DNA of 64,000 nucleotides from Minisyncoccota bacterium (lineage in GTDB: Bacteria > Patescibacteriota > Minisyncoccia > JAHIHE01 > JAGLIN01), in contig JAQVBZ010000001.1 of the NCBI GenBank assembly GCA_028690055.1, positions 20,452 through 84,451 of the forward strand. Reading direction: 5' to 3'. Shown here in pieces: positions 3,914 to 10,722 of the stretch (position 1 is the stretch's first letter; every line of letters starts with the position of its first letter). Both the position numbers and the translations under genes were made by a program. The notes beneath the pieces are model-generated. The model was not told the DNA's origin. It searched no databases and worked only from the letters and a program-made list of their open reading frames with translations.

Positions 3914-4882
3914 GTGTATATTATGTTTAAGAATAAATTTAAAACCAAGCCGATCATCGAGACGATTACCGTGGGTAGCTGTCTTAAGACCAAGCGGGAG
4001 GAACTGGGACTCTCTCTGCCGGACCTAAGCAGGGAACTCGGCATAAAGTACGAGTACCTGAAAAGTCTGGAGGAGGGCGATTATACCCAGCTGCCGCCAC
4101 AGGTTTATGTCCGCGGTTTCATCAAGAGCTATGCAAAACATCTCGACATTGATGCGTCGCAGCTCGTCAAAATTTACAACCGCGAGACGTCCTATCTTTT
4201 TGAGGAAGAGCGGGAGAGCAGACAGCGAAGCGCAAAGGCGAAAAAATCCGATTGGAAAGATTACCTGACTGTCACGCCGCGGATACTGACTGGTATTTTT
4301 AGCCTCTGCATCGTGACGGTTCTTGGATATTATTTTATGCATCAGATAAATTCTTTCAACTCCAAACCATATCTTTTTGTTGACAATCCTGTGGCGGATG
4401 GCGTGGTAAAAGAAAAAGACTTATGGGTTAGCGGCAAGACGGAAAATGACGCCATCTTGAAAATCAACGGACAGGAAATCAGTGTGAATGCGGAGGGTGT
4501 TTTTAGCCAGAAGATAGTACTTGCTGAAGGGAGAAATCTACTGGTGGTGGAAGCCAAAAATAGATTCAGCAAAACTGATAAAAAGGAAATCAATATAGTC
4601 TATGAAAAATCTGAAGAGGACAAACTGGTAGTTAAAGAGTCGGAAGCGGAAACTGTGGCGGAACCGATCAAGGAAATAAGCATTGTCGAGGAAAAGTCCG
4701 GTACTGTAGCTGGAGCAAAGACTCCGGTAGAGCCGGTCAAGAAAGAAATTGTCGTCAAGAAGGAACCCGATTCTGTCTTAGGGGCGAAAGCTTCCGCGGC
4801 GAGCATCGAAGAAGAAGTCGCAGTCAGTGGCAGCGAGGATGCGACAGTTCCGGTCGCAGATACGGAATCGGAAGGATTATGA
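3914..4882 (+). CDS. RodZ-like cytoskeleton protein (XRE-type HTH + single TM + extracytoplasmic region)
   Basis: N-terminus LGLSLPDLSRELGIKYEYLKSLEEGDYTQLPPQVYVRGFIKSYAKHLDID matches the RodZ HTH signature. A TM helix (LTGIFSLCIVTVLGYYF) follows. Alternative start at 3923. Confidence 0.6.
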   Translation: MYIMFKNKFKTKPIIETITVGSCLKTKREELGLSLPDLSRELGIKYEYLKSLEEGDYTQLPPQVYVRGFIKSYAKHLDIDASQLVKIYNRETSYLFEEERESRQRSAKAKKSDWKDYLTVTPRILTGIFSLCIVTVLGYYFMHQINSFNSKPYLFVDNPVADGVVKEKDLWVSGKTENDAILKINGQEISVNAEGVFSQKIVLAEGRNLLVVEAKNRFSKTDKKEINIVYEKSEEDKLVVKESEAETVAEPIKEISIVEEKSGTVAGAKTPVEPVKKEIVVKKEPDSVLGAKASAASIEEEVAVSGSEDATVPVADTESEGL

Positions 4883-5040: not shown

Positions 5041-6114
5041 ATGGTTAAAAAAGAAACCGATAAGAAAGATGAAGAGCCGGTAGTCGCGGATAAAAAAGCC
5101 GCAGCGCCGATCGTCTCGGACAAGAAAGAGAAGGCTATCAAAGACGCTCTGGATGAAATTCAAAGCCGTTTTGGTGAAGGGGCTATTATGAAGTTGGGCG
5201 ATGCCAAGTCAATGGATGTGGATTTTATTTCTACAGGATCTATTTCGTTGGATATCGCACTGGGGGGCGGAATTCCAAAAGGAAGGATTGTTGAAATCTA
5301 TGGATTGGAATCGAGCGGTAAGACTACTCTTACTTTGCATGTAATTTCTGAAGCACAAAAAAGGGGAGAGTCTGCAGCTTTTGTGGACGCTGAGCACGCG
5401 TTGGATCCGGAGTATGCCAAGAAAATCGGAGTCAATACTAAAGAGCTTATCGTATCCCAGCCGGACAGCGGAGAACAGGCTTTGGAAATAGTGGAGGCTC
5501 TTGTCAGGTCTGGCGCAGTCGATGTCATTGTGATCGACTCGGTGGCTGCATTGACACCGCGAGCGGAAATCGAAGGCGAGATGGGGGATTCCCATATGGG
5601 GCTTCAAGCGCGGCTGATGAGCCAGGCGCTTCGCAAATTGACCGCTATCGTTAGCAAGTCCAACTGTACCGTCATTTTCATCAATCAGATCCGTATGAAA
5701 ATCGGCGTGGTGTTCGGCAATCCGGAAACGACTACGGGTGGTAACGCTCTGAAATTTTATTCTTCGGTGCGTATCGAGGTGCGCAAGGCCGCGCAGATCA
5801 AGCAGGGGGAAAATATCATCGGAAATCGCGTTAAAGCTAAAGTGGTAAAAAACAAAGTTGCTGCGCCTTTCAAAGTTGCGGAATTCGATATCATGTATAA
5901 TGAAGGTATCTCCTATCTGGGGGATTTACTAAACGTTGCCGTCGAGCATGGGGTCGCAAAAAAAGGCGGGGCCTGGTATAACTACAAAGAGATAAAACTG
6001 GGACAAGGGTTCGAGGCCAGCAAGAAATTCTTGAAAGACAATCCTAAGATTATCGAGGAGATGGCGAAGGAAGTGAAGGAGGCGATTAAGAAGGAAGAGT
6101 TGGCTGTTGCATAG
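5041..6114 (+). CDS. recA: Recombinase RecA (with ~25-aa K-rich N-terminal extension)
   Basis: Walker [11 protein letters not shown]; L1/L2 region and [37 protein letters not shown] conserved. Confidence 0.95.
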
Positions 6115-6196: not shown

Positions 6197-6232
6197 GAAA
6201 GCCTATCTGGTCTGTCAGATAGGCTTATTTAA
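6197..6232 (+). terminator. Rho-independent terminator after recA
   Basis: Stem AAGCCTATCT...AGATAGGCTT followed by ATTT. Confidence 0.55.
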
Positions 6233-6248
6233 CAACGAATAGAATATC

Positions 6249-9101
6249 ATGAAGAATCTAGCGGGGTTATCCTTAATTCTCTTATTGGTGTTAGTATGTT
6301 TGGCGCCGTCTTCTGTCTGTCGTGTGGCAAACGCCGGTACACTTATTACGGAGGAAAGATTTGAAAACAGTATCAGCTCTTACTGGTACAGGGCAATGAA
6401 TAATTATTCCTATTCCGGTACTTACATTACCTCTCCTTTTGTTTCGCCTACTCATGCTTTTCGTATCGAACTGCATAGCAGCGATTCAGAGGTGGAAGGA
6501 GGCATGCGTGCGGAGTTGGAAAGCGAACCGGAAACGCGGCTGCAGGAGCGCACTTACAATTTTAATATTATGCTTCCCGGCGGAGGGGCGGATGATTATG
6601 CGTTGGATAATTACGATTGCGATGAAATTATTGCTCAATGGCATAACAATCCCGATTCCGGGGAAGATTGGACCATGCCACCACTGGCCCTTACTACAAC
6701 TACAAACGAGAAGGGGGAGGGGCGCTATGTACTTCTGAATCTATGGGATGATGCTGCTAAGTCCACGACGGAAGAAATGAAATCGGAAGGCAAAATCAGT
6801 TATTACGATCTTGGTTCGTATACGGAGGATAAGGGTAAATGGGTTAAATGGACTTTTCATGTCAAATGGGGGTGGCTTTCTTCTCATAACACTATTTTGG
6901 AAGTATACAAGAACGGAAGTTTGATCTTTAGTCATAACGGATATCCCAACACCACTAACGATCAAAAGGGTGTGAATCAACAGTTTGGAGTTTATAAATG
7001 GGAATGGGATGGCAGCGGACCCGATTCCAAACTATCGAAGCGCGTAATCTATTTTGATGATGTTAGCGTATATCAGGGATGGGAGGCTCCCGGTTCCACT
7101 TCTAACCCTCCCGCTACCACTTACACCGTCACAGTAAATAACGGCCTAGGCGGAGGAACCTATTCGGCGGGAGAAGAGGTGACTATTGTAGCTAATCTGC
7201 CTGTTTCCGGCAAAGCTTTTGACAGGTGGACAGGAAGTACTCAATATCTTGATAGCATCACTTCATATACCAATACTTTCACCATGCCCGCATCAAACAT
7301 ATTCTTTACTGCAACCTATCAAAACATAGCCCCCGCCACCTACGACCTCACTGTCACCAAAGGCTCCGGTGACGGAGCATACACTACAGGCACGCAAGTG
7401 ACTATCACCGCCAACACTCCCGCTCCCGGCAAGGTATTCGACAAATGGACAGGCGGTACTTCTAGTATAGCCAGCACGACATCATCGACCACTACAGTCA
7501 CGATGCCATCTGCGGATATCACTTTAATTGCCAATTACAAAGATGCCCCCAAGTATACTCTGACAGTAGCAAACGGTACCGGCGACGGCTCATACGCCCA
7601 AGGCGCGGAAACAGTGATCACCGCCGACACTCCCGCCACCGGCAAAGTCTTCGACAAATGGACAGGCAGTACCACCTACATCTCTAGCACGATATCACCA
7701 ACCACTATCGTAACGATGCCAGCTTCATCCATTACCCTCACTGCCACTTACAGAGATTCCGATCTTCTTGATCCTTCTACCAGCTTCCTGATGATAGGCT
7801 ACGGCTCCGGTGACGGTGCTTACCCTGTGGGTACACAAGTTACCATCACCGCCAATGAACCTGCCAAGGGATTGGTCTTTGACAAATGGACAAGAGACAC
7901 TGAATACGTTTCAGACATATACAGCACGACACCTACAGTTACCATCCCCGATCACGGCATCATCCTTGTTGCTTCATACGAGAGATCCGATGATGAGACT
8001 TTCAGACTGGTAGTATCCGGTGGTACCGGAGGAGATGATTATCTCCCCGGCACAGAAGTCACCATCACCGCCGACACTCCCGATACCAACAAAGTCTTCG
8101 ATCAATGGGTGGGAGACATCAGCCATATCGATGATACCGGCAAAGCCATAGCTATCGTAACTATGCCTGAAGAAGACATTACTCTGGTTGCTACATACAA
8201 AACCATAAACCAAGGAGAATACCTGCTTACCGTAAGGAACGGCACCGGTAACGGTTCTTATCTTCCCGGCTCTGAAATCATTATCAAAGCCGACACTCCT
8301 CCTACCGGTAAGATCTTCAGCAGATGGACAGGCAACACCTCTTACATCAACGACATCGATTCAGCCACTGCCACCGTTACGATGCCGTCGCTATCTATCA
8401 CCTTGACTGCCACCTACAAAGACAAAAACAATAATGGCAATTACCCCGACGGTACTCTCATCAAGCTCCCGGATTCTCCCAAGATATATGTCATCACCAA
8501 TGGAGAAAAGAAATGGATATCTACCCCTGAACAATTCGAACAACTGGGATATCAATGGACAGAGGTACAGACTGTCACCGAAGAGATATTGAGTACTCTT
8601 GAAGACATCGAAGATAATCTGATCCGTCTCATAGGAGACTTCAAAATCTATCTGGTTACCAACGGTACCAAACGTCACATCCCCAACCCCGATGTCTTCC
8701 TTAACTACGGTTTCAATTGGAACGATGTCAAAGAAGTGGATGAATCGATTTTCAACAAATACAAAGATGTCTATCTCATCAGAGAGTCAGGCAAAGAATC
8801 CGTATACTACCTGACCCCCGCGGGCATCCGCAAGCACATCCCCACCACAGACATCTTCAACTCTTACGATGACAAATGGGAAGATGTCCAAATCATTTCT
8901 CAAAACGAGATGAATACTTATACTCTTTCCAATCTTGTCAGGTTGGAAGGAACAAATGACGTTTATCTTATCGAGGGCAATATCAAAAGACGTATCCCCG
9001 ATCCAACAATCTTCAATAAATACAAGTTTAATTGGGAATACGTTCTTTCTGTAAATCAAACAGAATTCAACTGGTACCAGAATGGGGGAGAGTTGAGGTG
9101 A
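6249..9101 (+). CDS. Secreted multidomain protein: signal peptide, concanavalin-like jelly-roll (polysaccharide-lyase/glucanase-like) domain, ~10 Listeria-Bacteroides (Flg_new/InlB-B-type) repeats, 4 C-terminal ~55-aa Trp-containing repeats
   Basis: Signal peptide MKNLAGLSLILLLVLVCLAPSSVCRVANA. The N-domain (res ~40-280) has the block ILEVYKNGSLIFSHNGYP...QQFGVYKWEW...VIYFDDVSV typical of jelly-roll lyases. Repeats of ~80 aa follow with consensus YTLTV.NG.G.GSY..G..VTI.A..P..GKVFDKWTG.T.Y.....S.T..VTMP...ITLTATYK. The C-terminus has 4 repeats with pattern IYLVTNG.KRHIP.P.VF..YGFNW..V. Confidence 0.8.
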   Translation: MKNLAGLSLILLLVLVCLAPSSVCRVANAGTLITEERFENSISSYWYRAMNNYSYSGTYITSPFVSPTHAFRIELHSSDSEVEGGMRAELESEPETRLQERTYNFNIMLPGGGADDYALDNYDCDEIIAQWHNNPDSGEDWTMPPLALTTTTNEKGEGRYVLLNLWDDAAKSTTEEMKSEGKISYYDLGSYTEDKGKWVKWTFHVKWGWLSSHNTILEVYKNGSLIFSHNGYPNTTNDQKGVNQQFGVYKWEWDGSGPDSKLSKRVIYFDDVSVYQGWEAPGSTSNPPATTYTVTVNNGLGGGTYSAGEEVTIVANLPVSGKAFDRWTGSTQYLDSITSYTNTFTMPASNIFFTATYQNIAPATYDLTVTKGSGDGAYTTGTQVTITANTPAPGKVFDKWTGGTSSIASTTSSTTTVTMPSADITLIANYKDAPKYTLTVANGTGDGSYAQGAETVITADTPATGKVFDKWTGSTTYISSTISPTTIVTMPASSITLTATYRDSDLLDPSTSFLMIGYGSGDGAYPVGTQVTITANEPAKGLVFDKWTRDTEYVSDIYSTTPTVTIPDHGIILVASYERSDDETFRLVVSGGTGGDDYLPGTEVTITADTPDTNKVFDQWVGDISHIDDTGKAIAIVTMPEEDITLVATYKTINQGEYLLTVRNGTGNGSYLPGSEIIIKADTPPTGKIFSRWTGNTSYINDIDSATATVTMPSLSITLTATYKDKNNNGNYPDGTLIKLPDSPKIYVITNGEKKWISTPEQFEQLGYQWTEVQTVTEEILSTLEDIEDNLIRLIGDFKIYLVTNGTKRHIPNPDVFLNYGFNWNDVKEVDESIFNKYKDVYLIRESGKESVYYLTPAGIRKHIPTTDIFNSYDDKWEDVQIISQNEMNTYTLSNLVRLEGTNDVYLIEGNIKRRIPDPTIFNKYKFNWEYVLSVNQTEFNWYQNGGELR

Positions 9102-9123
9102 TTAACATAAAACATCTACAAAA

Positions 9124-9157
9124 AAACAGACCTTTTCGGATCTGTTTTTTTGTTTGC
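9124..9157. terminator. Bidirectional rho-independent terminator between the convergent 6249-9101 gene and the rpsR operon
   Basis: A-run, hairpin ACAGACC..GGATCTGT, T-run. Confidence 0.55.
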
Positions 9158-9158
9158 T

Positions 9159-9398
9159 TTATTTGGAGATGTAGGGCAATAGCGCCATAAATCTCGCACG
9201 TTTGATTGCTGTCGCGACCTGTCTCTGGTGCTTGGTGCAAGCCCCTGTCCTTTTCGGGGACATGATTTTGGCGCGTTGGTTGATGAATCTTTGGAGTGTC
9301 TGCGGATCCTTGAAGTCCGCATTTCTCTCGCGCTCCATACAGAAAAGACACTGCTTCTTCACCGTAGGGGCGTTGTTTCTCTTAGTATTGTTTATCAT
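9159..9398 (-). CDS. rpsR: 30S ribosomal protein S18
   Basis: KKQCLFC...DFKDPQTLQRFINQRAKIMSPKRTGACTKHQRQVATAIKRARFMALLPY matches the S18 signature. ATG at 9398 preferred over the upstream TTG at 9407. Confidence 0.85.
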   Translation of the reverse strand: MINNTKRNNAPTVKKQCLFCMERERNADFKDPQTLQRFINQRAKIMSPKRTGACTKHQRQVATAIKRARFMALLPYISK

Positions 9399-9415
9399 GA
9401 TACGCAATTATTTTT

Positions 9416-9883
9416 TTAAAAAGGTATGTCCTCAATTCTGATCTCTTCTTCGAAATTCTCGCTTTCTTTTGCCGGCGCCGGCGCGGAGTGGCTTTCGTGA
9501 GGTGCTGCGCTTGTACTTGCAGGCTTCTCGTAACTGCCGCTGTTTCCGGTACCTTTGCTCTTGGCGCCCATCTGCATATTTTCCGCGATGATTTCCGTGC
9601 GTGACCTTTTTTGTCCGTCTTGGCCTTCCCAAGTTCTGGTTTCCATCCTTCCTTCGAAGAGGACTTCCTGACCTTTGGTCAGGTATTGTCCACAGATTTC
9701 TGCTAGCTTTCCCCAGGCCACGATATTGTGGAACTCGGTTTTTTCCTGTCTTTCGCCGGAATTGTTGTTCCAGACACGGTTAGTGGCGATACTGAGCGTG
9801 GCAACCGATTGTCCGCTGGGAGTGGTGCGGATTTCAGGATCCTTGGTAACTCTCCCGATGACGATAGCTTTGTTGAAATTCAT
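9416..9883 (-). CDS. ssb: Single-stranded DNA-binding protein
   Basis: OB-fold N-terminus MNFNKAIVIGRVTKDPEIRTTPSGQSVATLSIATNRVW...FHNIVAWGKLAE, Gly/Ser-rich linker and acidic tail ending DIPF. Sits in the conserved rpsF-ssb-rpsR arrangement. Confidence 0.9.
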   Translation of the reverse strand: MNFNKAIVIGRVTKDPEIRTTPSGQSVATLSIATNRVWNNNSGERQEKTEFHNIVAWGKLAEICGQYLTKGQEVLFEGRMETRTWEGQDGQKRSRTEIIAENMQMGAKSKGTGNSGSYEKPASTSAAPHESHSAPAPAKESENFEEEIRIEDIPF

Positions 9884-9921
9884 AACCTTAAAGTTATTTT
9901 GTAAAAATTTAGCGGATAAAT

Positions 9922-10722
9922 TTATACAATAGTATCCTCCAGAATCGCATCAAGCTTATCTTCGAGCTCTTCCAATTTGATTTTGCTTTTCTTGCCTTTG
10001 CTTTCTTCTTTCTTCTCTTTACTCGGCGCCTTTTCAATCTTGCTTTCTTCTTTCTTCTCTTCTATCTTTGCCTCTTCAGACTTCAGCACCGATTCTTCCT
10101 CTTTCACTTCTTCTTTCTCCTTTTCCTCTTTCACTTCTTCAATTTCGAGTGTTGCTTCTTTCACTGCCACCTCTTCTTTTTTCTCTTCTTCTACCGTTTC
10201 CACAGCTGGCTCTACTGCTTTCACTTCTTCTTTCTTTTCGGCACCTGTTTCTTTCCTTGCAGTTTTACGGTCTTCTTTCCCTTTGCTGTTTTCAGCTTCT
10301 TCTCTTTCCTGCTCGGCTTTTTTGCGAGCAAAGAGTGTTTGCAGTCTCTCCCATTCTTCCTTAGTCATCGGGTCGGCTTCGAGGATGATGTGTCTGAGTA
10401 CGACTTTGCTGAGTCGCAAGTATTCGTCGATTTCTTCGATTTTCTTGCCCTCTGCTTCGAAATTGACGAGACAGTAGTAACCGAATCTTTCGTGCTTGAT
10501 CAAGTAAGCCAATTTTCTTTTCACGACCGGCAGAGCCTTGATTTCATCGGGTTCGTCTTCTTTGCTCATTCCGGCCTTGGTGAGGAACGGGTGTTCAAGC
10601 AAAGTCTCAAGCATCTTACCACCGAATTTTTCAATGTGCTTCTGCACATCTTGGAAATTCTTTACGATCTCTTCGCTGGTTTCTGACGCCGGAAGGATGT
10701 AAAGGAGTTCGTAATTTTTCAT
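9922..10722 (-). CDS. rpsF: 30S ribosomal protein S6 with ~150-aa Lys/Glu-rich low-complexity C-terminal tail
   Basis: N-terminus MKNYELLYIL...KRKLAYLIKHERFGYYCLVNFEA is S6-like. It lies upstream of ssb and rpsR on the same strand. The tail is EEKKEE-type repeats. Confidence 0.7.
   Translation of the reverse strand: MKNYELLYILPASETSEEIVKNFQDVQKHIEKFGGKMLETLLEHPFLTKAGMSKEDEPDEIKALPVVKRKLAYLIKHERFGYYCLVNFEAEGKKIEEIDEYLRLSKVVLRHIILEADPMTKEEWERLQTLFARKKAEQEREEAENSKGKEDRKTARKETGAEKKEEVKAVEPAVETVEEEKKEEVAVKEATLEIEEVKEEKEKEEVKEEESVLKSEEAKIEEKKEESKIEKAPSKEKKEESKGKKSKIKLEELEDKLDAILEDTIV

Follow-up and report, generated by a model that had tools for sequence, protein, structure and literature searches.

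We found that the 64,000-nucleotide stretch of contig JAQVBZ010000001.1 analysed here (the window) carries, on its forward strand, a gene for a 950-residue protein in which a polysaccharide-lyase head, a repetitive stalk and a C-terminal module of four repeats follow one another. On balance we favour the view that this is a Sec-secreted, modular cell-surface enzyme of a monoderm member of the Paceibacterota, which belong to the candidate phyla radiation (CPR), that it is encoded by a monocistronic gene, and that it cuts a uronic-acid polysaccharide while its tail serves as an anchor. The lyase head adds a new member to a family already known. The tail is the part worth following up: as far as sequence comparison goes, it represents an abundant family that is absent from both Pfam and NCBIfam.

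A first-pass annotation of this DNA had described a secreted protein of 950 residues, and the coordinates that it gave to the open reading frame proved exact. The parts of the protein are as follows.

6249..9101, + strand: open reading frame of 950 residues, with an ATG start and a TGA stop (9099-9101).
6249..6335, + strand: Sec-type signal peptide, residues 1-29, MKNLAGLSLILLLVLVCLAPSSVCRVANA/GT, read from the sequence.
6336..7118, + strand: beta-jelly-roll polysaccharide lyase domain (PF14099, PL13/PL20-like), residues 30-290, from the Pfam match.
6636, 6642 and 6993, + strand: putative catalytic residues Gln130, His132 and Tyr249, from conservation and alignment with heparin lyase I (HepI).
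7122..8435, + strand: six tandem Flg_new_2 (divergent InlB B-repeat) domains, residues 292-729, from PF18998 and alignment of the units.
7122-7337, 7338-7550 and 7551-7781, + strand: Flg_new_2 units, manual alignment.
7782-7997, 7998-8216 and 8217-8435, + strand: further Flg_new_2 units, manual alignment.
8448..9098, + strand: four-repeat module, residues 734-950 (the last 217 residues), from internal alignment.
8448-8609, + strand: repeat R1, residues 734-787.
8610-8768, + strand: repeat R2, residues 788-840.
8769-8927, + strand: repeat R3, residues 841-893.
8928-9098, + strand: repeat R4, residues 894-950.

The gene is already in GenBank under an automatic name: MDD3005968.1, called 'heparin lyase I family protein' and derived from a metagenome-assembled genome (MAG) of Candidatus Paceibacterota, is identical to the window protein at 932 of 933 positions. 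That 933-residue model starts at a TTG, codon 18 of the frame (nt 6300), which cuts away most of the signal peptide; if 6249 is taken as the start (ATG), residues 1-29 again form a canonical Sec signal, in agreement with the earlier description of the protein as secreted. The upstream ATG is supported by the N-terminus of a 98% identical relative (P0008), which is the same. A lipoprotein N-terminus was considered and rejected, as in the stretch L-V-L-V-C17 position -1 is occupied by Val, which a lipobox does not typically have there.

The head matches the Pfam Polysacc_lyase family (PF14099) over residues 44-273 with E = 8.9e-23 and 81.7 bits, against a gathering cutoff of 29.9; the domain taken alone scores 85.3 bits, and the match covers profile positions 8-210 of 210. 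Its jelly-roll fold is nearest to PL13 and PL20 structures, with lectins and carbohydrate-binding modules (CBMs) among the lower-ranked matches of the structure comparison. The first-pass reading of this domain as a jelly-roll polysaccharide lyase is therefore upheld, the type being heparinase-I/PL20. Homologues of this N-terminal domain numbered 33, and 25 sequences with 42-98% identity were aligned (numbering here converted to that of the full protein). Invariant in this alignment are Arg72 and Glu74 (motif RxEL(H/R)), Arg87 (motif KRxE), Gln130 and His132 (motif QWHN), and Tyr249, Lys250 and Trp251 (motif YKW), as are Arg265 and Tyr268; within KRxE, Glu89 is retained by 90% or more of the sequences. 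A profile of the head family matches HepI chains of Bacteroides at E = 5e-9 to 3e-7 (those of B. thetaiotaomicron and B. eggerthii at 5e-9 to 9e-8), as well as glucuronan lyase A of Trichoderma reesei (E = 7e-5). In the alignment with HepI, QWH falls on AQWHGMPD and FG(V/I)YK on FGIYR. We take these sites to be Gln149, His151 and Tyr357 of HepI, that is, the carboxylate-neutralising and catalytic residues, in the numbering reportedly used by Han et al. 2009; the chain index is offset by +2 at both aligned sites, which is consistent with that numbering. With Gln-x-His and Tyr present, a check on the catalytic residues does not refute the lyase assignment.

Nevertheless, to judge from its sequence the head falls outside heparinase I strictly defined, being acidic and without the thumb insertion. 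It is about 21% identical in structural alignment to HepI (PL13; 3IKW and 3IMN of B. thetaiotaomicron, 9GRW of B. eggerthii), and it comprises about 260 residues as against about 375 (chains of 370-382). The distance from His to Tyr is 117 residues in the head (His132-Tyr249) and about 205 in HepI, which has a thumb domain, and the HepI domain lacks the fusion to stalk and anchor seen in the window protein. The isoelectric point (pI) of the whole head domain is 4.64 (21 Lys and Arg versus 39 Asp and Glu), whereas that of BcHep-I, a homologous heparin lyase I, is 9.02 (PMC7575093). The missing thumb insertion and the acidic pI make sulfated heparin an unlikely substrate. Glucuronan lyase A (PL20; 2ZZJ) is also a distant comparison, as it is 16% identical, its profile match covers the C-terminal third only, and it is a fungal, single-domain protein while the window protein is bacterial and multidomain. 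The substrate of the head is probably not heparin, and a glucuronan-like or other acidic polysaccharide of a microbial envelope or matrix is more likely.

The closest head homologues with a named source are from MAGs of Methanogenium sp. (61% identity) and Peptococcaceae (51%); a further close match is a cluster with a Methanosarcina sp. protein among its members, the representative of which is 56% identical to the head. One close relative, P0037, is bacterial, as its contig also carries an outer-membrane efflux gene; the genomic contexts of P0013 and P0014 were uninformative as to an archaeal origin of the closest homologues. The subfamily is thus spread over anaerobes of both domains, and we make no claim of horizontal transfer from archaea. 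In four head relatives (P0011, P0015, P0016 and P0018, among them the Methanogenium protein and the Methanosarcina cluster) the head is accompanied by a dockerin/EF-hand-like DxNGNGxxDFDD tail or by PKD domains. These replace the stalk and the anchor, so that archaea and bacteria use one and the same head with display systems that differ.

Between head and tail, PF18998 (Flg_new_2) matches in six stretches, above threshold (E = 9.2e-72, 237.5 bits), and manual alignment likewise gives six units, of 71-77 residues each. The figure of about ten Listeria-Bacteroides repeats in the first-pass annotation is thus an over-count.

The C-terminal module consists of four repeats of about 54 residues, with pairwise identities of 21-42% and local alignment z-scores of 6-20 over shuffled controls, which substantiates the four repeats of about 55 residues seen earlier; each carries one conserved Trp (W770, W824, W877 and W929). 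An invariant cluster of polar residues in the module comprises R809, H810, N813, D826, S872, Y873, D879 and Q881, in numbering converted to that of the full protein. The isolated module has no family match in Pfam at E <= 10 and none in NCBIfam at E <= 1, and the wall-binding repeats ChW (PF07538), CWB2 (PF04122), LysM, SH3b, SLH, GW, CW_binding_1 and PG_binding are absent from the matches at these thresholds. A Pfam scan of 65 members of the module family found passenger domains only and left the module itself uncovered. In total 50 families were matched, of which 25 are listed and the remainder were matched by at most one member each; the wall-binding repeat families are not among the 25 listed. 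The only library match of the module is to phrog_9616, a phage protein family whose function is not assigned (E = 7.9e-22, four stretches). The C-terminal part of its 118-position profile, about 55 positions, corresponds to one module repeat, and it also matches each of the eight other module-family members tested. A tblastn search of 50,697 deposited phage genomes (INPHARED) with the module and the module-only relative P0138 found nothing, and a pattern scan of IMG/VR gave no confirmed relative, so that the link to phages is that through phrog_9616. A word-indexed homologue search with a single-repeat profile returned just two short matches and was uninformative.

The family itself is large. 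A profile built from eight sequences and scored against 1.84 billion cluster representatives (50% identity) matched 5174 of them at E <= 1e-3, 2226 at E <= 1e-10 and 418 at E <= 1e-30. Hence the module, which the first-pass annotation had called novel, is indeed absent from Pfam and NCBIfam but is by no means peculiar to this protein, being found in at least 5174 representatives. The proteins that bear it range from about 250 to 3254 residues, and in 132 of the 146 best representatives it ends within 10 residues of the C-terminus. The passengers found among the 65 scanned members include fn3 and Kre9_KNH (11 members each), Flg_new_2 (10), Laminin_G_3 (8), Big_7 (6), CARDB, Beta_helix, Cohesin and PKD_4 (4 each), CAP and Amidase_2 (2 each) and GH46 (1), and some members consist of an N-terminal transmembrane helix, a linker and the module alone (e.g. 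P0004). This C-terminal placement behind diverse extracellular passengers suggests a shared terminal domain for targeting or anchoring. Members with a named source are mostly from Patescibacteria MAGs, and the genome loci that carry the module are mostly in MAGs labelled Saccharibacteria or Paceibacterota.

The window holds one copy of the module. Two further proteins combine a right-handed beta-helix head with Flg_new_2 domains and the same C-terminal module: MDD3006324.1 (P0199, 1297 residues, nine Flg_new_2) and MDD3006964.1 (P0048, 1026 residues, three Flg_new_2). On the basis of their shared organism label and neighbouring accession numbers they probably come from the same MAG as the lyase, in which case one genome would hold a series of at least three head-stalk-anchor proteins. 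Another relative, P0056, shares both the lyase head and the module but has another stalk. The unit is not always confined to a C-terminal set of four. At loci L012 (1696-4632) and L013 (246-3194) and in proteins P0080, P0135 and P0163, the module lies near the N-terminus (three repeats, residues ~47-209) or the stretches that match the profile total 700-900 residues.

The AlphaFold model of the module (pLDDT 90.6, pTM 0.81) has four strands and two helices per repeat, with the four repeats packed as one body. In a Foldseek search of the PDB its ten best matches are all to EccB1 or EccB5 (E = 6e-6 to 1.6e-4, probability 0.95-1.0), and the model also resembles the cell-wall-binding domains (CBDs) of the phage lysins PlyCB (4F87), LysIME-EF1 (6IST) and Lys170 (7D55). 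The repeats of EccB1 have themselves been described as units of about 55 residues with four strands and two helices that resemble PlyCB (PMC4769845). The model therefore suggests that the fold is the known EccB-repeat/PlyCB-like one, and the likeness is structural only: searches of Pfam, and of the PDB sequences with the protein and with a profile of 93 repeats, found no sequence homology of the module to EccB (PF05108) or PlyCB, and phmmer with the whole protein against the PDB sequences gave noise only (E > 0.1). The sole PDB match of the 93-sequence single-repeat profile, a designed Kelch protein, was judged spurious, as it arises from the summing of weak repeats. Compared with the periplasmic repeats of EccB in the mycobacterial ESX (type VII) secretion systems (3X3M, 4KK7, 5CYU and 7NP7), the overall TM-score is only about 0.2; such low scores reflect an arrangement of units that differs from those of EccB and PlyCB. 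EccB belongs to a secretion machine and contains a central core domain as well as an N-terminal transmembrane helix, whereas the module is a run of contiguous repeats at the tail of secreted multidomain proteins. The first-pass annotation could not place these repeats in a known family; this stands as regards Pfam, NCBIfam, ChW and CWB2, but not as regards phrog_9616 and the fold.

Taken together, these observations suggest the following working model. The protein would be exported by Sec and retained by its tail on the cell envelope, which in Patescibacteria is that of a monoderm (PMC11665869). The PL13/PL20-type head would most likely act by beta-elimination on a polysaccharide containing uronic acid, with the residues used as heparinase I uses them (Gln130 to neutralise the carboxylate, His132 and Tyr249 as base and acid), while the six Flg_new_2 domains may keep the head at a distance from the cell. 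The four packed EccB-repeat/PlyCB-like units are the candidate anchor, and would bind a polymer of the producer's own envelope non-covalently. Wall binding has been shown for PlyCB and for endolysin CBDs (PMC4769845, PMC7098653), and LysIME-EF1 carries a ring of four CBDs that is required for lysis (PMC7098653); the fusion of four units in one chain may confer multivalency, much as that tetrameric ring does. The order of signal peptide, head, repetitive spacer and C-terminal non-covalent wall-binding repeats is that of the SLH-, CWB2-, LysM- and GW-anchored enzymes of monoderms, in which the terminal module is likewise common to many surface proteins of one organism. The overall design is thus ordinary; the anchor family is uncatalogued, and in contrast to those enzymes the window protein matches none of SLH, CWB2, LysM and GW at its anchor.

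Several observations weigh against this model, which needs to be interpreted cautiously. The signal peptide of the window protein was assigned by eye, and the PF14099 subfamily to which the head belongs is without a biochemically characterised member. The module is acidic (pI 4.7; family median 6.2), unlike many basic wall-binding domains, and for the EccB repeats cell-wall binding is a hypothesis only (PMC4769845). Some family members have an N-terminal module or more than four repeats, and the observations would fit a module that binds the wall of its producer and one that binds the surface of a partner alike. This last point bears on the possible, if rather unlikely, case that the architecture is as described but the module binds a partner or host surface (a bacterial wall or an archaeal envelope), so that the protein is released or bridges two cells and its lyase is targeted in the manner of a phage endolysin CBD. 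The structural neighbours PlyCB, LysIME-EF1 and Lys170 are phage domains that recognise a target wall, the repeat is present in phrog_9616, the few members with Amidase_2 or GH46 heads have lysin-like architectures, and those in which a linker joins a transmembrane helix to the module may represent adhesins of minimal size. It is also documented that Paceibacteria attach to other cells and that they live on them as parasites, methanogens included (PMC10936435), which makes a host-directed role of the lyase conceivable. On the other hand, most passengers are large and adhesin-like or stalked (up to 3254 residues) with the module at the C-terminus, which is the usual layout of self-anchored proteins; the functional head sits at the end opposite the module, and the searches of deposited phage genomes and IMG/VR gave no match. 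A more far-reaching version, which we regard as distinctly unlikely, would make the module the principal uncatalogued envelope-targeting domain in Patescibacteria, related only distantly, and in fused form, to the EccB and PlyCB repeats, which marks the 'surfaceome' of the episymbionts, and the lyase a weapon that depolymerises an acidic polysaccharide of the host envelope or matrix, possibly archaeal, at the site of attachment. Our literature search found nothing that links PlyCB or EccB to CPR bacteria.

The remaining alternatives concern the head and the module separately. That the whole protein works as an adhesin, its N-terminal jelly roll binding carbohydrate like a lectin or CBM without being catalytic, strikes us as very unlikely, given the catalytic residues that this domain retains; nevertheless, the fold is common to many lectins and CBMs, some of which are among the lower-ranked structure matches, no member of the PF14099 subfamily is characterised, and genes for sugar uptake or uronate catabolism are absent from the neighbourhood. 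It seems to us equally improbable that the module serves oligomerisation, integration into an S-layer, or secretion and sorting, and is needed for export or assembly rather than for binding. Its strict C-terminal position on unrelated passengers recalls the C-terminal domain of type IX secretion substrates, the CBDs of PlyCB and LysIME-EF1 are themselves ring-forming oligomerisation units, and EccB has a structural role in a secretion machine. However, a sorting signal would not be expected to have the size of a compact four-repeat domain of 220 residues (pTM 0.81), the surroundings of the gene show no evident dedicated export system, and occurrences at the N-terminus or in more than four copies fit a binding repeat better than a terminal signal. 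We retain the self-anchored surface lyase as the working model. The proposal in the first-pass annotation of a host-surface attachment or glycan-degrading factor is, from the sequence, plausible.

Little is understood of the ways in which Patescibacteria attach to their hosts and draw food from them, and the greater part of their surface proteins lacks annotation. A module common to thousands of large extracellular proteins would provide a sequence handle for listing the proteins that CPR bacteria display, and the tagged module would be a concrete reagent for asking which envelope polymer these proteins bind; with the lyase head comes a candidate enzyme that could degrade the polysaccharide of a partner or matrix. 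None of this changes a paradigm, as a wall-anchored modular enzyme is familiar from monoderms and the lyase domain had already been annotated automatically in GenBank.

The gene lies between housekeeping genes and is flanked by two hairpins.

5041..6114, + strand: recA, the upstream neighbour.
6199..6226, + strand: hairpin AAGCCTATCTG-GTCTGT-CAGATAGGCTT, between recA and the lyase gene, read from the sequence.
9118..9153, either strand: terminator-like bidirectional hairpin with a 15-bp stem between A and T runs, from the terminator scan and the sequence.
9159..10722, - strand: rpsR-ssb-rpsF, the convergent downstream neighbours.

More housekeeping genes lie around it (an rpoC fragment, ftsK, a gene for a RodZ-like HTH_25 protein, ychF, mscS and a nucleotidyl transferase gene), and among the neighbouring genes of the window none is for sugar catabolism, uronate catabolism or sugar uptake and transport. 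The hairpin at 6199..6226 is probably the terminator of recA, to judge by its sequence, although the consensus terminator scan did not report it; if so, the lyase gene would be a separate transcription unit. The hairpin at 9118..9153 sits between the lyase stop codon and the convergent genes. With housekeeping neighbours and a hairpin on either side, the lyase gene looks monocistronic and stand-alone.

Two neighbouring products may be noted. The RodZ-like protein (3914-4882, + strand, 322 residues) combines HTH_25 with a Glucodextran_B domain, and the latter recurs in the stalk of the lyase relative P0056. The ribosomal protein S6 reading frame (9922-10722, - strand) encodes 266 residues, far more than is the norm for bacterial S6; its Pfam S6 match is limited to residues 67-113, and it has a Glu/Lys-rich C-terminal tail of about 150 residues.

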